From Candidatus Methanoperedens sp. (GTDB lineage Archaea > Halobacteriota > Methanosarcinia > Methanosarcinales > Methanoperedenaceae): DNA of 32,000 nt. Made by a program: the position numbers and the translations under genes. The stretch spans positions 150,001-182,000 of the forward strand of contig JBGQBI010000001.1 of the NCBI GenBank assembly GCA_041494705.1, written 5' to 3'. The notes under the pieces were generated by a model that made no database searches, had not been told where the DNA came from, and saw only the letters and a list, made by a program, of their open reading frames with translations. Shown here in pieces: positions 3,334-24,146 of the stretch (its first letter is position 1; every line of letters begins with the position of its first letter).

Positions 3334-4699
3334 AAATCCGCCCGTATTCGTCCTCGAACCTCTCAATATCGTCCTCTCCCACGTAATCACCAAGCTGCAC
3401 TTCTATGATTTCAAGCGGGATTGTTCCGGGGTTTGATAAACGATGCTTTACTTTAGCCTTTATGAAAGTACTTTCTCCTTCTTCCAGACGTTTTTCTTCA
3501 CCATCGACCTGCACCAGTGCAATTCCTTTTACCACTACCCAGTGCTCGCTCCTGTATTTGTGCAACTGGAGGCTGAGTTTTTTTCCCGGCATGACCCTTA
3601 TGTTTTTTATCTTGTGTCTTCCTGACGTTTCAAGTATGGTGTACGAGCCCCACGGCCTGTACACGGTCTGGTGAAGAAGTGCCTTTTCATCTTTCTTTTC
3701 TTTGAGCGCGGTAACTATTTCCTTGACTTTCTGTGAGCTTTTCCTCGGACATACAAGCAGCGCATCATCCGTATCCATCACAACCATATCATTAACATCG
3801 ATAAGCGATACTGCTTTGCCTTTCTTTGAATAAATCAGGTTGGCAGTGGAATTTATTGAGATATCCTCGCAATTGTAGATGGCATTACCTTTTTCATTCT
3901 TTTCAGTTTCTACATACATAGAATCAAAGTCGCCAAGGTCGCTCCATTTATATCCCAGCTTTACAACTGCTACTTTTTCAGATTTTTCCATGATGCCGTA
4001 ATCAATTGAGATGGAAGGGAGTTTCTTGTATATTTGACCGATATCATTGCGTTTCGTGAATGCAGTAAAAATATCAGGTGAATGGGTTTTAAGTTCGTTG
4101 AAAAATAGTTTTGTGTTAAAAAGGAACATGCCGCTGTTCCACAGGCATCCTTCTTCGATATATTTCCTCGCAGCTTCCAGTTTGGGTTTTTCCATGAACT
4201 TGAGAACTTTTTGGGCATTTTCCAGATTTTCCCCGGGTTTTATGTAACCATAGCCTGTATGAGGGAATGCCGGCGCAATCCCGAAGGTAACAAGATATTC
4301 CCCGGCCAATTTCTCCGCGCCTCTTATAGTACCCATGGCATCCATATCCAGTACGTGGTCTGAAGGGAACACGCCAACTGCGCATTCACCGAACTTTTTT
4401 TCTATCTCACTCATTCCAAAACATATTGCAGGGAGAGTATTCTTTCCCTCCGGTTCGATAAGGACGTGGTCTTCAGGGAGATGATGCCCGAGTTCCTCGA
4501 TTTGTCCTGTAACAAAGAACTTCTGGGCATCGTTCGTGACTACGAATATTTCGGTGATGTCCGATATCTTAAGACACCGAAGCAGTGTATTCTGGAAAAG
4601 CGAGGTTTTGCCAAGTTTTAAAAACTGTTTCGGGTACTGTTCCCTGCTCAGCGGCCAGAGGCGAGTGCCAGACCCGCCTGCAAGTATTATTGATTTTAT
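3332..4699 (-). CDS. manC: mannose-1-phosphate guanylyltransferase / mannose-6-phosphate isomerase (bifunctional ManC type), start codon non-canonical
   Basis: The track ORF (3332..4414) continues in frame for 95 more codons without a stop. That stretch encodes the canonical N-terminus IKSIILAGGSGTRLWPLSREQYPKQFLKL. The C-terminus is a cupin domain (LSLQLHKYRSEHWVVVKG...). No ATG/GTG/TTG exists in frame upstream of 4414. ATA at 4699..4697 sits where Met is expected, 8 nt after GGGAG. Confidence 0.8.
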   Translation of the reverse strand: MKSIILAGGSGTRLWPLSREQYPKQFLKLGKTSLFQNTLLRCLKISDITEIFVVTNDAQKFFVTGQIEELGHHLPEDHVLIEPEGKNTLPAICFGMSEIEKKFGECAVGVFPSDHVLDMDAMGTIRGAEKLAGEYLVTFGIAPAFPHTGYGYIKPGENLENAQKVLKFMEKPKLEAARKYIEEGCLWNSGMFLFNTKLFFNELKTHSPDIFTAFTKRNDIGQIYKKLPSISIDYGIMEKSEKVAVVKLGYKWSDLGDFDSMYVETEKNEKGNAIYNCEDISINSTANLIYSKKGKAVSLIDVNDMVVMDTDDALLVCPRKSSQKVKEIVTALKEKKDEKALLHQTVYRPWGSYTILETSGRHKIKNIRVMPGKKLSLQLHKYRSEHWVVVKGIALVQVDGEEKRLEEGESTFIKAKVKHRLSNPGTIPLEIIEVQLGDYVGEDDIERFEDEYGRI

Positions 4700-4739
4700 G
4701 GTTTTATCTCCCTTTTCACAATATGATATATCATAATTC

Positions 4740-5900
4740 TCACGTCACTATCTCTTCCACTCTCTCCTCTTCGATAGCGCGCCTTATTTCCATTGCCATT
4801 CTTCGCCCTGTGCTCATGGGTTTGCGCCAGAGCGTATTGCCGTACGGGTGACCCACTGATACATGCACATTCGTGCCTCCGCCCACACGCGGCGCCACAT
4901 CGTATACATAGAAATTCAGGTCTTTGTCCACGCAGGTCTGGAGGCAGAACGGGCCGATAATCCCGGGTTTATAGTATTTCCGGGTCGCTTCCACGTATTT
5001 TCTGGCAAGTTCGAATGCGTCCTCAAGCAACGATTCACGAAGCGTTGCCGAGTTATGCCCGCATACCGTGTATTCAGGCGTTACCTGGCGCTCATTTAGC
5101 GCCATCTGCTGCGGCGCAGGCAATCGCACATGCCCGTCAAGGCTCGTCTCAAAGCGCCAGTCGATGCCGAGTAATTCGATTTTGCTCATTTCCTCCTCTA
5201 TTGGCGAGTAGAACATATCAAGGTTAAAAACCGGTCCAATGACATATCGTTCTATCCGTGCTTCTGCAAGGGCTTCCCGTGTAATTACTCCCTGTTTCAG
5301 GAACGCCTCTGATTTTTTCTTGAATTCTGAAAACGACGCAGCCGTGAAGAACCCGCGTTCAAGTTTCTTTACTGCATGAGGGAGTTTCACCATAACGAGG
5401 CTGTCGATATCTTCGGGTTTTTCAATTTTTTCAGGGAAGGGAAGACCCGCTTTTTCAAGCAGCCAGTAATAATCCCGCGGAATTCCCCGCTCTTCGCTGC
5501 GGAGGAGGTTCCGGCTCCCGAACATCGGAACCTTGAAACTGTCTTCTATTTCATCTATACCGCAATAAGAAGTAAACGAGCGGTTCGGAATAAAAATCGT
5601 GTTTTTATCCCGCAGTTTCTTCTGGTTCCCGGGTTTTAATATTTCATTGAATTTATTATAAACATCTGCGCTGTCCACAATCCCGCGTATGAGTTTTCCC
5701 TTCTTCCTCTCTGCCTTAAAATATTCTGTATATGTCTTCTCCCGTCCCTTTTCGCATACCGCATGAGTCCTGAAACCTTCCTCAACCGCCCCATCGCAAA
5801 CGTCAAGAGCAGAATGAGATGCCAGCACTCCAACCGTGGCTTCACTCAAATCGTATCCCGATAAAACATCTATTATTTCCTTTCTATCTATCATATTCAC
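4740..5900 (-). CDS. purP: 5-formaminoimidazole-4-carboxamide ribonucleotide (FAICAR) synthetase, archaeal PurP
   Basis: 386 aa ATP-grasp-like protein. The N-terminal VGVLASHSALDVCDGAVEEGF and overall length and pattern match archaeal PurP (recognised from memory of the family). Confidence 0.75.
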   Translation of the reverse strand: MNMIDRKEIIDVLSGYDLSEATVGVLASHSALDVCDGAVEEGFRTHAVCEKGREKTYTEYFKAERKKGKLIRGIVDSADVYNKFNEILKPGNQKKLRDKNTIFIPNRSFTSYCGIDEIEDSFKVPMFGSRNLLRSEERGIPRDYYWLLEKAGLPFPEKIEKPEDIDSLVMVKLPHAVKKLERGFFTAASFSEFKKKSEAFLKQGVITREALAEARIERYVIGPVFNLDMFYSPIEEEMSKIELLGIDWRFETSLDGHVRLPAPQQMALNERQVTPEYTVCGHNSATLRESLLEDAFELARKYVEATRKYYKPGIIGPFCLQTCVDKDLNFYVYDVAPRVGGGTNVHVSVGHPYGNTLWRKPMSTGRRMAMEIRRAIEEERVEEIVT

Positions 5901-5951
5901 CTGTAGGTCTTTTACGTCTATGAAGGTTACGATTTTGGAAACTGCGCTCCA

Positions 5952-6692
5952 TTATTTTTTGGCTTCGGCAATTATAATATTAGCGCGCCCTTTTTTGATT
6001 TTTTTGACTAAACCCCTGTTTTCCAGGTCAGCTATCATCAGGCTGACCTTCGCCTCTCCATATTTTACTTCTTTTCTCAGCTCCTTCTGGGTTACCCTTC
6101 CTCCTTTTTTCATTATCAGCTCATAAATCCCGCGCAGGTCTTCAGGCAGTTCTGTGATTTCGGTTTTTGCTATGTTTTCAGGAGGAATCCCAATGGTTTC
6201 TCCAGCGCCCTGTTCAATCGGCTTATTTTTCTTTTTCCTCATCCAATAAAGAATCAATAAAGCAGCGAACACGAGGAATGTGGTAATTATGTAATATATT
6301 TGATTAGAATCGCTTTTTAAAACCAGGTCGCCGGTCAGATTTATGTCGCCAAGATATTGGTTTTCCAATTCCGTGGGCGGGAAAAGCAGGAGGTCATGGA
6401 CATAATCTCCTTCCCGGTCAATACGTATCTCATCTTCGGCAGCAAATTCAAGGATATTATTGCGGTAGTATTTTGCCTTAATCATATAATTGCCGGATGA
6501 GAGATTGAATGAATATGTCCCGTTCGTTGATACCACATACTGTGACGGTGTGGAGTTTACTTCAACAATTGCGCCCTTAAGAGGTTTCTCAAAATCTGAC
6601 CATTCGTAAATGGTGCCGTGTAAAGTTGCGGCTTGCGCGCCACTAATGAAGATGACTGTAAATAAAATACCTAAGAGAAAACTTTTTCTCAT
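5952..6692 (-). CDS. membrane-anchored protein: signal peptide, carboxypeptidase-regulatory-like beta domain, TM helix, C-terminal winged-helix DNA-binding domain
   Basis: The internal start MRKSFLLGILFTVIFISGAQA (ATG 6692) gives a signal peptide. TM helix: IYYIITTFLVFAALLILYW. The C-terminus IYELIMKKGGRVTQKELRKEVKYGEAKVSLMIADLENRGLVKK is wHTH-like. The upstream part of the track ORF is AT-rich junk. Confidence 0.6.
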   Translation of the reverse strand: MRKSFLLGILFTVIFISGAQAATLHGTIYEWSDFEKPLKGAIVEVNSTPSQYVVSTNGTYSFNLSSGNYMIKAKYYRNNILEFAAEDEIRIDREGDYVHDLLLFPPTELENQYLGDINLTGDLVLKSDSNQIYYIITTFLVFAALLILYWMRKKKNKPIEQGAGETIGIPPENIAKTEITELPEDLRGIYELIMKKGGRVTQKELRKEVKYGEAKVSLMIADLENRGLVKKIKKGRANIIIAEAKK

Positions 6693-6901: not shown

Positions 6902-8155
6902 ATGAAAAATAGACATAGGTTCACTATATTAACGTCGCTTGTTGCGGTTGTATTTATATTGAGCCTGTTCTCAGGAATCGCAGCGGCCCAAAAGCCAGAC
7001 GGAAATAACGGAAACCATGAGAAATTTGCAAATACAGAAAAACAATTTCAGAGTGCAAAGGCACAATTGGATAAGGCATTAAAGCAATTCAATGCTAAAA
7101 AGGACAGCAAATCAAAGGATGAACTCGTACTCACAACCAGGGAGTATCTTGAAACAGCAATAAATCATACAATTTCATATCTTGATGTCCTGAAATCCAG
7201 AGCAGAAAAGCCTGAAAACCAGGGGATAATCCCATTCAATGTTTCTACAAATGCCGATGCTCATGTTGCGGAACTGGAACAGCTAAGAACAAAAGTAGAG
7301 CAGGATAACACAACCGAGGAATTTAGAGCAGATAATACCGAATTAAAGAATATATACTCCGGGATAAGACTTGAAACCCAATATGATTTCGCTATACTGC
7401 TTGATAATACAATAGGTAAATTCATTACAAAGTCGGATAACGTGTCAGCAAGACTTAATGTGGAAATTCAGAACCGGAAATCTAATGGCACAGATACATC
7501 CAATCTTGAGGCAATCGCTGCAAATTTCACGAATTTGATGCAAGAAGCAAGAGCCGGCCAGCAGAAAACAGAAGTGTTGTTAGCAACCCACACAGGATTT
7601 GACAATTCTGGCATGGTTATAAATAATACGGATGCCCAGGCTTTCTTGAAGAACGTAGACGATTCTCAAAAAGGAACAATCAAAACAATGAGAGATGCAA
7701 GCAGGCTATTGCAGGATTTCGTCAAGGATTACAGAAAACTCTCGGCTGGAAATGCCACAGCAGGAGGTAAGACAGCAAATAAGGAGAACGGGCGAGGCGG
7801 AAAAACCCTGGTCAAAGGGACAGGTACATTGGTAGCTAATGGCAGCGGTAGGGCAGTAATCCAGGGAAATGTCACAGTTTCGCTTTCCGGAACAAACGTT
7901 ACCTTGACAGTCTCAAGTAATGCCGCCGTTACCACAGATAGCGGTACAAACCAGACTCTCGGCAACGGACAGGTCAAATATCAGGGATTTAACTCAGCAA
8001 CAATAACGGGCGACAACATCAGAGTCGGAATATCCGGCAACAATATCAGCCTCACCGCCACGGGCACAGGTGCAGCAGTTCTTAACGGCAATGGAACATA
8101 TACAACCGAAAATGCTTTCGGTGTGAGCGGCGAATGGAAGAAAGGAGGAGCATGA
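6902..8155 (+). CDS. secreted protein rich in N-glycosylation sequons with C-terminal beta-strand repeats
   Basis: ATG 6902 lies 8 nt after AGGAGG. Signal/TM segment FTILTSLVAVVFILSLFSGIAAAQ. There are many NxS/T sequons. The C-terminal repeats are GNVTVSLSGTNVTLTVS / GDNIRVGISGNNISLTATG. No PGF-CTERM-type tail is present. Confidence 0.6.
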   Translation: MKNRHRFTILTSLVAVVFILSLFSGIAAAQKPDGNNGNHEKFANTEKQFQSAKAQLDKALKQFNAKKDSKSKDELVLTTREYLETAINHTISYLDVLKSRAEKPENQGIIPFNVSTNADAHVAELEQLRTKVEQDNTTEEFRADNTELKNIYSGIRLETQYDFAILLDNTIGKFITKSDNVSARLNVEIQNRKSNGTDTSNLEAIAANFTNLMQEARAGQQKTEVLLATHTGFDNSGMVINNTDAQAFLKNVDDSQKGTIKTMRDASRLLQDFVKDYRKLSAGNATAGGKTANKENGRGGKTLVKGTGTLVANGSGRAVIQGNVTVSLSGTNVTLTVSSNAAVTTDSGTNQTLGNGQVKYQGFNSATITGDNIRVGISGNNISLTATGTGAAVLNGNGTYTTENAFGVSGEWKKGGA

Positions 8156-19631: not shown

Positions 19632-20297
19632 ATGAACGTCACGGAAGCCCTGAATTCCCGTTATTCCACCCGCGCCTTTAAATCTGACCCTGTTGACCAG
19701 GAAACGATTCTCAAGATACTGGAAGCCGCAACCCGCGCGCCCTCATGGGCAAATACCCAGCCGTGGGAGATATTCGTTGCAGGCGGGGAGGCTCTGGAAA
19801 GGCTGCGGCAGGGTTATCTTTCAAATTTTAAGATCGATGTGCCCCGTCAATCGGATTTACCAAGACCCGAACTCTGGCCTCCAGCCCATCAAAAGCGCAT
19901 TGAGGAATTGGGGGCGAAACGCTTTGGTCTTCTTGGAATTAAACGCGATGACAAAGCCCAAAGACAGGCATTTTCCGAGGCGAACTCTAAGTTTTTCGGG
20001 GCGCAGGTTGTCGTTTACCTGTGCATGGACCGCACCCTCACGCCCTGGTCGGTATTCGATATCGGAATGCTGGCCCAGAGTATTATGTTAGAGGCACAGG
20101 AATATAATCTCGGCTCGATACCTGCTTTTATGCTGGTATCTTACCCTGAGCTAATCCGAGCAGAACTGGAAATCCCGGAAGACCTGTCGATTATAATCGG
20201 AATTGCTCTTGGCTACAGCGATACGCAGCATCCGCAGAATAAGTTCAGGAGCCCACGGCGGGATATCAGGGAAGTTGTCAGGTTTAAAGGGTTTTAA
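19632..20297 (+). CDS. nitroreductase-family flavoprotein
   Basis: RYSTRAFKSDPV and EAATRAPSWANTQPWEIFV are the classic nitroreductase N-terminal motifs. GGAG lies upstream of the ATG. Confidence 0.8.
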   Translation: MNVTEALNSRYSTRAFKSDPVDQETILKILEAATRAPSWANTQPWEIFVAGGEALERLRQGYLSNFKIDVPRQSDLPRPELWPPAHQKRIEELGAKRFGLLGIKRDDKAQRQAFSEANSKFFGAQVVVYLCMDRTLTPWSVFDIGMLAQSIMLEAQEYNLGSIPAFMLVSYPELIRAELEIPEDLSIIIGIALGYSDTQHPQNKFRSPRRDIREVVRFKGF

Positions 20298-20302
20298 TCC
20301 TT

Positions 20303-20318
20303 AATCCTGATTCATGGG
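20303..20318. repeat. left copy of 16-nt direct repeat AATCCTGATTCATGGG (candidate attL)
   Basis: Matches 23213-23228 (AATCCTGATAAATGGG) at 14 of 16 positions. It lies 6 nt after the nitroreductase stop and ends where integrase homology begins. Confidence 0.5.
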
Positions 20319-20871
20319 ATTTTTATTATGGTGGGATTTTAAAGAAAAATTTTGCTTATGATATCAAAAGACCAAAGAAAGACAAAAAGTTGCCTGTTGT
20401 GATGAACGGTGTTGAGATTTCTCAAATGCTTTCATCGGTTAGCAACATAAAACACAGAGAAATCCTGATGCCCATATATTCTACGGGTTTAGTGTGAGTC
20501 AGGTCGTGAAGTTAAGGTACGAATAAATCGACGCTGAAAGAAAGCTCGTTCACTTAAAAAGTGCAAAGGGGAGAAAGGATAGGTACACGATACTTTCGGA
20601 TGTGGCGTTGGAAACGATAAGGAAATACCTGAAGAAATATGGTCAATCAAGATGGCTATTTCCATGTCAAGATAAAGAAAACCATATAACAACTCGGTCA
20701 TTTGAACAGATATTCTCAAATGCTTGTAAAAAATCGAACATCGAGAAAGACGTCACGGCGCATTCTCTCAGGCATAGCTTCGCTACGCATCTACTTGAAT
20801 GCGGTACAGACCTGCGGTATATCGAGGAGGTGGTGGGGCACAAGAGTTCAAAGACAACAGATATATATACG
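20318..20871 (+). pseudogene. tyrosine recombinase (XerC/D-IntI-like) pseudogene, truncated at both ends
   Basis: Conceptual translation: FYYGGILKKNFAYDIKRPKKDKKLPVVMNGVEISQMLSSVSNIKHREILMPIYSTGL. A frameshift follows (stop at 20495-20497), then VSQVVKLRYE, then an in-frame TAA at 20524-20526. It continues [23 protein letters not shown]...[38 protein letters not shown]. The HxxR, GH and Tyr boxes are present. The N-terminal SAM-like domain is missing, and homology ends right after the catalytic Tyr-Thr. Confidence 0.8.
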
Positions 20872-20966
20872 CCCAGCCGTTATATGCCATTGCGGGCAGA
20901 AGAAAGAGATAGTGATTTCGATGCCTACAAAACCAACACTAAATTCGAACAGAAAGGAGCTTTGTT

Positions 20967-21260
20967 ATGTTAATGCCAATGGACACGACAGGAAGCAGCC
21001 TTCCAGAATTAATTAAGTCGAAGCGTGCGGAGTTTACACAATTGGTCGAAATTCAGGGGGGATTTTCTGGCATCGACCAGGAAGTCAAGGCTGAACTCGC
21101 AAAGTTAGAGGCTTTGGTGGTGACGAACGGGCGAGCGATGATGGGACTACCATTCATCTGGGGGTCGATCAGGATATTAGCGATCTATGGGAGATGGTCT
21201 TGGTGGAGAACACCTACACCAAAACCACCACCCTCAGAGGCCCGAGTGAATCTTGCTTAA
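20967..21260 (+). CDS. hypothetical small protein (97 aa) with one C-terminal hydrophobic/Trp-rich segment
   Basis: ATG lies 7 nt after AAAGGAG. The segment [21 protein letters not shown] is followed by a Pro/Lys tail. It is the first ORF of the GC-rich core. Confidence 0.5.
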
Positions 21261-21285
21261 GACCAAACTGCGCAGAGGTCTTGAC

Positions 21286-23094
21286 ATGCGCGCGATTGTT
21301 GAGCGCGGCCTTCGTCTAGAAGCACAACGGTCAACTCCTGCGCTTCCCGACGTAGCGGCTCTGTGCCTTCGCATCGCGCACCATGCGCACGCTCTCGGAA
21401 TGTTGGATGGGAGCTCTACCGTGCTCGTGGACTGGGCTACGAGCCGGTATGAAGCCTGGGCCGCCTCGCTCCACAACTCAGACTTAGAAGTCGTCAAGGC
21501 AACCCTCGCTTCGGACCCCGTCAACCTGCTAATCGGTGGGCTTTGCCTCCCTGATGAGGACGCCCGAGAACGTGTGTTTGCGACTTACCTAACCTTCGCA
21601 CAATGCTTCAATGACCAAGGCATTTCGGTCGCCTCAGTCAAGAACGCACCGCTCGTCGGAGCCCTTCTCCGCGCCATGGGTCGCAAGGAAAAAGCAGATT
21701 GTCTGCCTTCCTCGTCTAACAGTCGTCCGGTTCTTTGGGTCGATATTGACGAGATTGCGAGGTTTGCACTTAGCGCTACCGAATTTGGAAGCAGGCTCGT
21801 TGTCTTGCAAGAGCAACGATCTATCGAGGCGGTCGTTGAGGCTCACCTCGTCAAATCGGCACGTACCTGTGATATCAATCGTGCGGGATATGCACTTCTT
21901 ACAGCAGCACTCCTTGGTATCGCGCGGGAGCGGTCGCAGGAACTTGTTGCGTGGTTAGCCAGGATGTTTCGGAGTGACGGCCTCATTGGATATTTGGAGT
22001 TCTACGAGGGTATCGAGACACGCGCCAACCTCCTGGTCTGCGCCAACGCCTACTGGGGGCTTCATATCGCGTGTAGGCCAGAAACGCCGTTGTATCCGAC
22101 CCTGACGCGCGTGCGCGACACTGTAGGCGTTTCAAGGCAAGCAATCAATTTGATACCGTCGATTCCCAACATCGACGTGAATCGGTGTGAACGGGTGGGG
22201 CATTCGCTCTGCAGGTGGCTTGAAGAGCGTCTTCCAAAGTTCAGCCTACTGCCAGCATGCAAGGACCGAGCAGACTTTGACAATCGCTTCAAGCCACTGA
22301 CAGAGATGTTTCTGATCCTTTTCATGCTCACTCGGCCAGAGCACGTTGAGTTGGGCTCCCCCTTTGTTCCATGGGCTAGGCGCATGACTGAGAAGCTTGC
22401 GGACCACCTCGACTGGGAGGGACTCGTAGAGAGCTTCAGAATGCACGCGACCGATTCGATCGGACTCATGGCGCCTCTCCTGTTAGAACAGCTCACTGGC
22501 AGACAATCTCGCTTCCACGATGAGTTGGTCGAGCTCTTGCGCCATCCCCTCGCTCAAGCCAAAGAGCGGACGCCGATGAGACAATTGGAGTTCCACATGG
22601 TCCGTTATCTCCATGGGGAGGCGAATGCCCTTGGGGATATGAAGGAGGAGTTATCGCGGACCTTGCTTGGTCGTGCGTGTGATCCGCTATACTTCTCCAA
22701 TGAGGATGCGTACGACATTACACATGCAGTAATCTACGCCCTAGCGTTAGGCTGGACATCTGATTCGGGCATTCTTGCGTCATACCGTCCCTGGCTAAGC
22801 CGCCATCTAACAAGCCTCACGCTTGCCAGCATGCTGGACGGAGATTTCGATCTGGGTGGCGAGTTCCTGATTTGCCACCTTCTCGACCAACAGGAGCCGG
22901 ATGTCAAGTTCGTACTGTCGGTCGAGCTTCTTCTCGATGCCGTTCAAGAGGACGGCGCGATATCGGGGCCGTCTCGGGAGATGCGTGAGGACATGGACGC
23001 TTTCGAGCGATGTTACCACACGACGCAGGTATGTTTGGTTGCATTGGCGGAAGTTTGGATCGCGCAGCTGCGACCGAAACCCACACATACCTAA
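21286..23094 (+). CDS. hypothetical large helical protein (~602 aa), no recognisable catalytic motif
   Basis: The only long ORF in the GC-rich core; antisense ORFs there are 144 aa or shorter. The start is either ATG 21286 or TTG 21253. Leu/Ala/Arg-rich. The C-terminal third has YDITHAVIYALALG, DGDFDLGGEFL, VQEDGAISGP and CYHTTQVCLVAL. Confidence 0.7.
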   Translation: MRAIVERGLRLEAQRSTPALPDVAALCLRIAHHAHALGMLDGSSTVLVDWATSRYEAWAASLHNSDLEVVKATLASDPVNLLIGGLCLPDEDARERVFATYLTFAQCFNDQGISVASVKNAPLVGALLRAMGRKEKADCLPSSSNSRPVLWVDIDEIARFALSATEFGSRLVVLQEQRSIEAVVEAHLVKSARTCDINRAGYALLTAALLGIARERSQELVAWLARMFRSDGLIGYLEFYEGIETRANLLVCANAYWGLHIACRPETPLYPTLTRVRDTVGVSRQAINLIPSIPNIDVNRCERVGHSLCRWLEERLPKFSLLPACKDRADFDNRFKPLTEMFLILFMLTRPEHVELGSPFVPWARRMTEKLADHLDWEGLVESFRMHATDSIGLMAPLLLEQLTGRQSRFHDELVELLRHPLAQAKERTPMRQLEFHMVRYLHGEANALGDMKEELSRTLLGRACDPLYFSNEDAYDITHAVIYALALGWTSDSGILASYRPWLSRHLTSLTLASMLDGDFDLGGEFLICHLLDQQEPDVKFVLSVELLLDAVQEDGAISGPSREMREDMDAFERCYHTTQVCLVALAEVWIAQLRPKPTHT

Positions 23095-23212
23095 TGTCAC
23101 ATCAACTCTCAAAAGTCTGAAAGTCTGGATAACTTTATCCTTGCATCTTCGGTTGTAAATCGCCAATTTACTTTCGCATTTTTATTTTTGGCAAGTAAAA
23201 GCATATCAAAAA

Positions 23213-23228
23213 AATCCTGATAAATGGG
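23213..23228. repeat. right copy of 16-nt direct repeat AATCCTGATAAATGGG (candidate attR)
   Basis: Its last 4 nt (TGGG, 23225-23228) are the discriminator base plus the first three acceptor-stem positions of the minus-strand tRNA-Val. Confidence 0.5.
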
Positions 23229-23298
23229 CCCGCGGAGATTCGAACTCCGGATCTCTTCCATGTCAAGGAAACGTCATAACCAACTAGACCACGAGCCC
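23225..23298 (-). tRNA. tRNA-Val (anticodon GAC)
   Basis: The reverse complement folds by hand as a 74-nt cloverleaf. Acceptor GGGCUCG/CGGGCCC, D arm GUCU-AGUUGGUUA-UGAC, anticodon stem UUUCC/GGAAG with loop UUGACAU. Variable loop AGAUC, T arm CGGAG-UUCGAAU-CUCCG, discriminator A. CCA is not encoded. Confidence 0.9.
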
Positions 23299-23516
23299 AG
23301 TTCATTCCACCAGTGGATTATCGCTATTAGGCGATTGTAGAGGTAATCATCCCTTTTTTTAGAAATTATCCACTTTCTTGGAAGTGGGCGTTAATAAGAA
23401 TCCAAAGCAAATATACTTATCGAAAATTAGAGGTTGTTTTAATTCGTGTTGGTAGTTATGTCAAGATATAATATATCTATGAAAACCACCTTGCATGGAT
23501 TATGAAATATTTTCCT

Positions 23517-24146
23517 TCAGTGCTTTTTAAAGCTATTATTTCCATAAAAAAAGTATTTCCCCCAATCCTTTAATCCCATGCCACCAGCAAAGTTAAACTC
23601 TTTAGTAAAATAAAGGGGTCCTGACTGGAGCCGACCTATCAAATCATCGCTAATATTGGCATTTACAAGTTCTCTTACTTTTTTTACAAAGTAATCCAAG
23701 TAAAAAAGAATTTCAGGTTCTCCTGTAGTTAAATCTGTTGTCACTTTAGAAGGGTATCTTACCTCGTTAAAATTATATAATATATCAATAAGAATCCCAA
23801 CACCATCTTCCTTGAAGAATTCATCCTTTTCTTGACAACATTCCAATAATTTCTTTAAATCATGGTTCTTAAATACAATTTCTTTCCCTTCAGTATCTCT
23901 ATAGCCTTTAATATACTTGCCATTTATCCCGTAATGTTTCAAAATGAAGGCTTTTAAATATTTTTCGACTGCCTGCTGCATGTGGTATGCCCCTAATCTA
24001 TAAAGATCAGAAAGCATCAATATACGAGTGGTTATGTAATCCTCGGATGCCAGCCGTAACCATAAATCAGGATTATATTCTATACTTAAATCTTTCAATT
24101 CCTCCAAGCTTAACATGTCTGAAGTTATTGGGGGCACATTATTCAA
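23517..24146 (-). CDS. HEPN-domain protein (209 aa)
   Basis: The YHMQQAVEKYLKAFIL (QAxEKxLKA), KNHDLKKLLE and NEVRYPS pattern matches the classic HEPN (PF05168-like) helices. A sampled line is about 32% GC. No adjacent nucleotidyltransferase gene. Confidence 0.65.
   Translation of the reverse strand: MNNVPPITSDMLSLEELKDLSIEYNPDLWLRLASEDYITTRILMLSDLYRLGAYHMQQAVEKYLKAFILKHYGINGKYIKGYRDTEGKEIVFKNHDLKKLLECCQEKDEFFKEDGVGILIDILYNFNEVRYPSKVTTDLTTGEPEILFYLDYFVKKVRELVNANISDDLIGRLQSGPLYFTKEFNFAGGMGLKDWGKYFFYGNNSFKKH

Follow-up and report, generated by a model that had tools for sequence, protein, structure and literature searches.

A stretch of 32,000 nucleotides (nt) from Candidatus Methanoperedens sp. 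(contig JBGQBI010000001.1, positions 150,001 to 182,000 of the forward strand; hereafter the window, numbered from its first letter) carries a two-gene cassette that was horizontally transferred from bacteria into this archaeon. The first gene encodes a small protein of 97 amino acids (aa), and the second a large, helical protein that ends in a DUF6895 domain. We tentatively favour the interpretation, to us close to an even call, that the pair is a self-contained module whose double-toroid DUF6895 protein modifies the product of the gene upstream of it. The more specific proposal is that the pair belongs to an undescribed class of small proteins resembling peptides that are made by the ribosome and modified after translation (RiPPs). 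This class would combine QG-box recognition, a Trp-rich cationic core and a double-toroid, epimerase-like DUF6895 enzyme, with or without an APH-type kinase, and its minimal form would have passed from bacteria into an archaeon; as a whole, this proposal appears possible but rather doubtful.

The two genes and their products

The cassette contains the following coding features:

20967-21260, + strand: small partner protein, 97 aa, with the Shine-Dalgarno sequence GGAG 8 nt upstream
21253-23094, + strand: large protein, 613 aa if started at TTG 21253, 602 aa if started at ATG 21286 (the start called by JGI)
21253-22170, + strand: N-terminal domain of the large protein, approximately residues 1-306 of the 613-aa form, no Pfam family
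22207-23046, + strand: DUF6895 domain (PF21836) of the large protein, residues 319-598 of the 613-aa form, by Pfam hidden Markov model (HMM)

A preliminary description of this DNA, made from its letters, had reported two co-oriented open reading frames (ORFs) in a GC-rich cargo and a good Shine-Dalgarno sequence in front of the first ORF. All of these features were confirmed, with a GC content of 0.55-0.56 over 21001-23000 compared with 0.44 for the window. The reported length of 602 aa for the large protein is correct for the ATG start, but the TTG at 21253, which overlaps the end of the small ORF by 8 nt, is preferred because the additional N-terminal LRxxLD aligns with the N-termini of the closest homologues (loci L005 and L008). 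Measured against the two nearest homologues, the ratio of nonsynonymous to synonymous substitution rates lies at 0.09-0.18 in the large gene; in the small gene it lies at 0.22-0.40. Since both ORFs are thus under purifying selection, far above chance ORFs, both are real genes.

The large protein had been regarded as an orphan with no recognisable family, which does not hold. Its C-terminal 280 residues match the DUF6895 HMM at 134 bits (133.9 bits against a cut-off of 23.8 bits; E-value 9.8e-39; model positions 4-288 of 289). When this domain was aligned with 43 stand-alone DUF6895 proteins, only five residues were invariant across the 44 sequences, namely Y476, H480, D522, E526 and H578 (numbering of the 602-aa form, also used below), and all five are kept in the large protein. 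The four C-terminal motifs that had earlier been singled out as weak hints are exactly the conserved motifs of DUF6895; an element given there as QxxDG actually reads Q-E-D-G. The N-terminal domain carries an invariant W..R.DG..G motif (FRSDGLIGY; W223, D231, G232 and G235), and the conserved acidic motif of the large protein is DGDFDLGGE. The mean column identity of the large protein is approximately 30% in an alignment of 19 sequences. Regular-expression scans of the large protein supported the earlier statement that a Walker A motif is absent, and they likewise found no CxxC, HExxH or DxDD motif and no Q-x3-G-x-W repeat. Besides DUF6895, no Pfam match was obtained at E-values up to 1, including LANC_like, nothing was found in NCBIfam, PADLOC or PHROGs, and sequence and profile searches of the PDB returned nothing meaningful. 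No Cys is invariant in the 19-sequence or the 44-sequence alignment, and there is no conserved Cys/His zinc site.

The suggestion that the large protein is all-helical was borne out by an AlphaFold2 model computed from the 19-sequence alignment (predicted local distance difference test score, pLDDT, 86; predicted template-modelling score, pTM, 0.87). The model is built of 31 helices and lacks sheets, and its two domains are linked around residues 265-297; a model from four sequences was set aside (pLDDT 54). In a Foldseek search of the PDB, no match fell below an E-value of 1e-3, the top match having an E-value of 1.5e-3 at a probability of 1.0, and the template-modelling (TM) scores were 0.24-0.5. 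Full-length alignments were obtained with drimenyl diphosphate synthase (7xqz) and squalene-hopene cyclase (2sqc) at TM-scores of 0.24-0.30, while the alignments covering single domains were with truncated cyclases, AprG, GH76 and GH88, all of them alpha/alpha toroids. According to the model, the large protein would therefore consist of two alpha/alpha-toroid-like domains at the fold level.

The earlier hunch of an alpha-alpha toroid of the prenyltransferase or terpene-cyclase kind thus appears to stand with regard to the fold, but not with regard to the cyclase. Class II terpene cyclases of the beta-gamma didomain type (7xqz, 2sqc) would share the two alpha/alpha-barrel domains and are the top Foldseek matches, and the DG-containing hairpin motifs of the large protein recall their QW repeats. 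However, the large protein has neither DxDD nor QW repeats, shows no sequence relation to these enzymes and has its two domains arranged sequentially. Lacking DxDD and QW repeats, the protein is not a terpene cyclase, and lacking a conserved Cys, it is not LanC-like. A direct hhalign comparison of the N-terminal with the C-terminal domain gave only P 0.009; a relation between the two is supported only indirectly, through the downstream partner genes described below.

The small protein is composed of an acidic N-terminal part with a helix and a QG box (Q30 G31 ... D37), a Trp-rich segment and a Pro/Lys tail. Its family comprises at least 29 clusters of 69-101 aa and a more distant subtype of 118-125 aa. 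Helices flank the QG box on both sides and Q30, G31 and D37 are invariant in the family; S67 and W77 are invariant in both of its subtypes, which accompany the kinase-less form (type A, including the window copy) and the kinase-bearing form (type B) of the large protein. The C-terminal segment has the consensus (P)F(I/V)WG(S/T)IR(I/V)L(S/A)(V/I)YGKWS(F/W)W, followed by a basic tail, and its majority-residue frequency is 0.81 as compared with 0.50 in the protein's own N-terminal part. Averaged over the family, the N-terminal part has a charge of -3.6 and the C-terminal part a charge of +5.2, with about 3.4 Trp in the latter. The small protein lacks Cys, and no match was found in Pfam, NCBIfam, PADLOC or PHROG.

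The small protein had also been described as membrane-anchored, which is not supported. The best Kyte-Doolittle window of 19 residues reaches 1.34 in the 97-aa protein and 0.83 as the family mean, the segment contains conserved Arg and Lys, and in the type B proteins it includes His, Lys and Asp and is followed by about 30 polar residues. Given the low hydropathy, the conserved basic residues and this polar stretch, the segment is not a transmembrane anchor; judged by its sequence, it is a nearly invariant amphipathic cationic helix of about 25 residues. The idea of a carrier protein with the G-S-I/L motif as phosphopantetheine site was rejected, because there was no PP-binding match and too few residues follow the Ser.

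Distribution of the pair and of stand-alone DUF6895 proteins

A full HMMER profile search yielded 929 relatives of the large protein. The full two-domain architecture is found in about 20 cluster representatives (about 19 in alignment A4), and seven of these proteins are approximately 900 aa long (P0037, P0038, P0042, P0044, P0045, P0048 and P0049). In 4/4 of the ~900-aa proteins scanned (P0037, P0038, P0042 and P0044), a C-terminal APH-type phosphotransferase (kinase) domain is present, while in L018 (7041-10097) and L032 (2196-5201) the APH kinase is encoded by a separate gene that comes next downstream and overlaps. The small protein of the type B systems (L018, L032, L020, L023 and L031) has a length of 118-125 aa, a DFS(I/L)R...TW motif and an invariant Ser.

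The preliminary description had proposed to examine homologues for conserved pairing. In every full-length locus examined, corresponding to about 12 distinct contexts, the small ORF is located upstream of the large gene, and by the invariant Q30, G31, S67 and W77 the small ORFs of these loci constitute one family. The spacing ranges from a 4-nt overlap to about 50 nt in type A and most type B pairs and is wider in two type B loci, with 87 nt in L018 and about 215 nt in L031. The identities of the small and the large protein decrease in step (65/77%, 45/63% and 38/32%). The neighbourhoods of the examined loci share nothing but the small ORF, joined in one subtype by the kinase. Broader pattern scans recovered three loci in genomes and 12 in metagenomes, and nothing was returned from viral contigs, phages or plasmid DNA.

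The closest relative of the cassette lies on a bacterial contig with 66% GC, and the DNA homology covers only 21006-23078, that is, the two genes, at 77.7% identity; for the next relative it covers only 21345-23056. The GC content of the pair departs from that of its host in the window, L005, L008 and L018. As this deviation occurs in both directions (0.55 in the pair versus 0.44 in the host in the window, 0.52 versus 0.66 in L008), the pair behaves as a mobile cassette. Mobile-element flanks are present in L008 and L012, where integrase fragments, IS66 and HicB, or an integrase and an excisionase, were found, whereas L005, L015, L020 and L023 show ordinary chromosomal genes and no known defence genes.

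Two of these loci contain further genes. Directly downstream of the closest bacterial pair, a 596-aa ORF without a Pfam or PADLOC match is found (L005, 12344-14134), which is absent from the window. In L012, the pair is flanked by genes for a 586-aa protein (4687-6447, + strand) and a 229-aa protein (7052-7741, - strand), neither of which has a Pfam family. These two proteins are not related to the DUF6895 system; they share a near-identical C-terminal motif, ...QPFPVYGW(I/L)D(V/I)(Y/W)W, and a gene for an integrase and an HTH_17 gene are adjacent. A candidate second pair in L012 (96 aa and 586 aa) likewise has no relation to the cassette.

Stand-alone DUF6895 proteins of about 300 aa make up most of the other relatives. 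Their contexts were read from six annotated plasmid loci of Bacillus, Pseudalkalibacillus and Streptomyces, the metagenome contigs with such genes being too short for this purpose. In four of these loci, a small ORF of 56-86 aa lies directly upstream of the DUF6895 gene; of the remaining two, one has a gene for a 144-aa PUD1_2 protein in front of it and the other, from S. fungicidicus, a 62-aa ORF two genes upstream. An adjacent downstream gene with the motif LLDQQQ(P/E)DG(S/T)FG was detected in 4/6 loci. These downstream partners are homologous to the C-terminal part of the N-terminal domain of the large protein (hhalign probability 93.7%, E-value 1.9e-7) and match the equivalent part of DUF6895 more weakly. 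Fusions of the two modules in the opposite order also occur. Because the modules exist elsewhere as separate, adjacent genes, the large protein is best regarded as a fusion of two toroid modules. This pattern, a Rosetta-stone type of evidence, suggests that the two toroid modules would work together beside the product of a small ORF.

Several small ORFs of the stand-alone operons look like RiPP or peptide precursors by their sequences. Three of them, on Bacillus, Pseudalkalibacillus and Streptomyces plasmids (L038, 2931-3110; L039, 5629-5889; L040, 5759-5965; also listed as sharing it, P0194 and P0195), have the N-terminal motif EAFQxLQKSGLLNPxLT in common. Their aromatic C-termini differ: Streptomyces has LIGPWYAY, two Bacillus sequences have HSFCLLMCW, and Pseudalkalibacillus has another.

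Three of the plasmid loci deserve separate mention. In L041 (2763-8000; S. fungicidicus plasmid p1), an operon-like series starts with genes for a cytochrome P450, a 62-aa ORF and a 231-aa ORF, continues with those for a 323-aa DUF6895-like protein and a 305-aa DUF6895 protein, and closes with a serine hydrolase; with its tandem DUF6895 genes, the locus is a candidate for a biosynthetic cluster. In the plasmid of Streptomyces sp. NBC_01243 (L040, 4520-5368), a Tn7-like TnsA/integrase block is situated directly beside the stand-alone DUF6895 operon. A HEPN and nucleotidyltransferase pair and a tyrosine recombinase are found near the DUF6895 operon of a B. cereus plasmid (L036, 9977-10763).

A typical DUF6895 protein stands alone and measures about 300 aa, whereas here the domain is fused behind a Pfam-less toroid domain. 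The cassette resembles the stand-alone operons in the small ORF that precedes the gene and in the second toroid module alongside. It differs in being paired with a dedicated family of small proteins (about 70-125 aa), not with a lasso cluster, and in its archaeal host. In the window, no lasso cyclase, peptidase or PqqD genes were found near the pair.

The preliminary description had interpreted the pair as a defence, abortive-infection or exclusion module. The small protein would then serve as an effector that disrupts membranes, and the large protein would sense, activate or neutralise it. This interpretation would agree with a compact, self-contained and horizontally mobile module and with the integrases, IS66 and HicB that accompany the pair in the window, L008 and L012. 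Stand-alone DUF6895 operons on plasmids that lie near recombinases, a Tn7-like TnsA and a HEPN-nucleotidyltransferase pair would also fit, as would the resemblance of the cationic, amphipathic, Trp-rich segment to membrane-active peptides. We nevertheless consider it improbable. PADLOC-DB 2.0 (2023; newer systems would be missed) gave no match for the pair, the neighbouring HEPN gene or ten further neighbours and relatives, searches among PHROGs, phages and viral contigs revealed no relatives, and the loci share no neighbourhood, most contexts (L005, L015, L020 and L023) consisting of ordinary chromosomal genes with no known defence genes among them. In addition, the HEPN gene of the window, on which the defence interpretation had drawn, lies outside the islet (see below).

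A possible role in peptide modification

In our favoured interpretation, the large gene would be translationally coupled to the small gene, and the large protein would bind the small protein with the N-terminal QG box as the recognition element. The modified residue would lie in the conserved C-terminal segment of the small protein. By analogy with the reported DUF6895 epimerase of lasso peptides, the reaction may be a cofactor-independent L-to-D epimerisation, for which the invariant His/His/Tyr/Asp/Glu cluster would provide the catalytic residues. The product would be a modified small protein or a RiPP-like peptide, which may act as a membrane-active or signalling peptide. In type B, the APH-type kinase probably phosphorylates the invariant Ser as an addition.

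Peptide precursors typically combine an acidic pro-region with a cationic core. The small gene adjoins the enzyme gene and is co-oriented with it, a trait of RiPP cassettes that was encountered in about 12 contexts. We favour a substrate relationship on account of four observations: the peptide precedent for DUF6895, the recurring upstream small ORF, the layout of an acidic leader and a cationic core, and the kinase that accompanies an invariant Ser. The precedent is a paper whose title refers to a DUF6895 family epimerase in lasso-peptide modification (Shi et al., ACS Catal 2026 16:1757, 10.1021/acscatal.5c08590).

Several observations weigh against this interpretation. The interaction of the two proteins is something we infer from synteny, and the precedent of a DUF6895 epimerase is taken from the title of that paper. 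Among the six annotated plasmid loci with stand-alone DUF6895, a lasso cluster was found at none. The putative core is nearly invariant and is the most conserved, not a hypervariable, part of the small protein, and there is no RiPP recognition element, leader protease or exporter in the cassette or the islet. A PUD1_2 protein of about 145 aa, not a peptide, is encoded upstream of DUF6895 in a Haliscomenobacter metagenome-assembled genome (L019, 7510-7962), and the same arrangement recurs in an unrelated Streptomyces plasmid (L037, 6310-6744). Furthermore, an HMM of the QG box picked out all small ORFs of types A and B from a background of 3160 decoy ORFs but missed those of the stand-alone operons, whose likeness to the QG box is by eye only. 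As the HMM does not connect them, we make no claim that the two kinds of small ORF are homologous.

An obligate subunit would fit the invariant core and the missing recognition element, protease and exporter equally well. The small protein would then not be a substrate but a lid, a scaffold or a tether to the membrane surface, and the enzyme would act on an isoprenoid, a lipid or a glycan. This alternative is consistent with the best structural matches, which are two-toroid class II terpene cyclases, together with glycoside hydrolases and AprG, and with the fact that non-peptide substrates are usual for alpha/alpha-toroid enzymes. It also accords with a C-terminal segment that is better conserved (0.81) than the enzyme itself (about 30% mean column identity), with the absence of a protease or exporter, and with a Trp-rich, basic, amphipathic helix suited to interfacial membrane binding. 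On the other hand, DxDD and QW motifs as well as a conserved Cys/His zinc site are missing from the large protein, and the Foldseek matches have E-values of only about 1e-3 and TM-scores of 0.24-0.5. The sole functional report for DUF6895 concerns, by its title, a peptide substrate, and the small ORFs that precede stand-alone DUF6895 genes resemble peptide precursors with genus-specific C-termini. Taken together, we regard the subunit alternative, the chief rival of our interpretation, as unlikely, but as deserving serious attention.

The modification of the small protein can be compared with known peptide-modifying systems. One peptide epimerase system consists of the epipeptide YydF and the radical-SAM epimerase YydG. 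Another is MslH/MslA, the peptide epimerase system of the lasso peptide MS-271 (PMC10406935), in which MslH has a metallo-phosphoesterase fold. The likeness to both is in concept only, comprising a linked small precursor, an L-to-D enzyme and a C-terminal segment containing Trp. Neither MslH nor YydG is an alpha/alpha toroid, and their operons encode processing and export functions that are absent here.

Class III/IV lanthipeptide synthetases combine a kinase with an alpha/alpha-toroid, LanC-like cyclase that acts on a leader-core peptide. Type B systems are similar to these in having kinase and toroid domains beside a small ORF with an invariant Ser. However, the kinase is of the APH type, there is no lyase domain, the zinc ligands of LanC are missing and the small protein has no Cys; moreover, the copy in the window, which is of type A, is without any kinase. 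A lead towards class V lanthipeptides, which involve an APH kinase and an unknown 'X' protein, was abandoned because the literature indicates a cyclase with a kinase fold instead of a toroid.

The islet in the archaeal genome and the significance of the module

The cassette is located in an islet with the following features:

20303-20318, no strand: left copy of a 16-nt direct repeat, AATCCTGATTCATGGG, directly after the nitroreductase stop codon (20297)
20340-20973, + strand: decayed tyrosine-recombinase (integrase) gene of which only the catalytic domain is left, from three-frame translation
23213-23228, no strand: right copy of the 16-nt direct repeat, AATCCTGATAAATGGG, overlapping the 3' end of tRNA-Val
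23224-23299, - strand: intact tRNA-Val gene (anticodon GAC), from ARAGORN; Rfam tRNA 62.4 bits

The integrase remnant lies between the nitroreductase stop codon and the small ORF and has a host-like GC content of 0.42. It matches Pfam Phage_integrase (8e-23) and the PHROG integrase (4e-25). Three-frame translation revealed a frameshift and a stop codon around 20490-20530, and the last intact ORF piece (20602-20973, 123 aa) retains HxxR...Y. The 3' end of tRNA-Val, the probable integration target, points toward the cassette. The integrase pseudogene, this orientation of the tRNA gene toward the cargo and the GC contrast of 0.56 versus 0.44 together identify a tRNA-linked integrative islet, so that the earlier view of a foreign cargo in such an islet is retained.

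The two copies of the 16-nt repeat are identical at 14/16 positions and are the sole two matches in the window, one at each expected edge of the islet. Although short, the repeat is suggestive of an att remnant. An exact 12-nt repeat, TTCCATGTCAAG, was also noted at 20660-20671, within the integrase fragment, and at 23256-23267, in the interior of tRNA-Val. By our own estimate, about one such 12-nt repeat is expected by chance per 5 kb; in some archaeal integrases the att site is located inside the int gene.

Metagenome contigs with 100% identity to the window break at the proposed edges of the islet or inside the tRNA. One of them (L004, Logan SRR35969287) covers exactly 20275-23213, and L002 and L003 stop at 23253, inside the tRNA. 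Such breaks are the pattern expected if strains with and without the islet coexist and are suggestive of this situation.

The host is a euryarchaeon; among the genes of the window are those for archaeosortase A, PurP, the SAMP-activating enzyme UbaA, a geranylgeranyl reductase and a DNA polymerase of family B. A HEPN-domain gene is found at 23517-24146 (- strand; Pfam 4e-10, N-terminal part only), with the lowest GC content in the window (0.335). Next to it, no nucleotidyltransferase partner was found, and the gene has no match in PADLOC or NCBIfam. The preliminary description had counted it as context of the islet, but as it lies beyond tRNA-Val and has a very different GC content, it is outside the islet and may be a separate foreign insertion that used the same tRNA region.

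The history of the islet also bears on the possibility that the cassette is a silent passenger, that is, a recently acquired bacterial fragment trimmed to two ORFs and unexpressed or non-functional in its archaeal host. The GC content of the cassette has not ameliorated (0.56 versus 0.44 in the host), and the integrase is decayed. The stretch homologous to the bacterial relative leaves out the first 40 nt of the small ORF and stops 16 nt short of the stop codon of the large ORF; as it is confined within the two ORFs, the cassette brought no promoter of its own. Selection within the lineage is not measurable, since all recovered copies of the islet are 100% identical. We nonetheless consider a silent passenger very improbable, given that both ORFs are intact over 2.1 kb beside a decayed integrase, that the good Shine-Dalgarno sequence and the start-stop coupling are preserved, and that the same islet was recovered from four independent samples.

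DUF6895 itself is a catalogued domain family with, judging by the title of a single paper, one reported enzyme. In the literature searched, no description was found of the fused two-toroid architecture, the family of small proteins, the kinase-bearing subtype or the archaeal occurrence, and, to our knowledge, modified peptides of ribosomal origin have not been characterised by experiment from any archaeon. Our results correct the earlier view of this locus, which is not an orphan and shows no sign of a defence system. If the favoured interpretation is true, DUF6895 enzymes would not be mere accessories of lasso peptides but the core of widespread minimal modules of a small protein and a toroid enzyme, with or without a kinase, and such modules would move between bacteria and archaea, with the cassette as a documented inter-domain transfer of peptide modification. 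The double toroid would then be a cofactor-independent peptide-modifying scaffold of biocatalytic interest, and the small proteins would represent a new family of precursors whose clear sequence signature could be used in genome mining.

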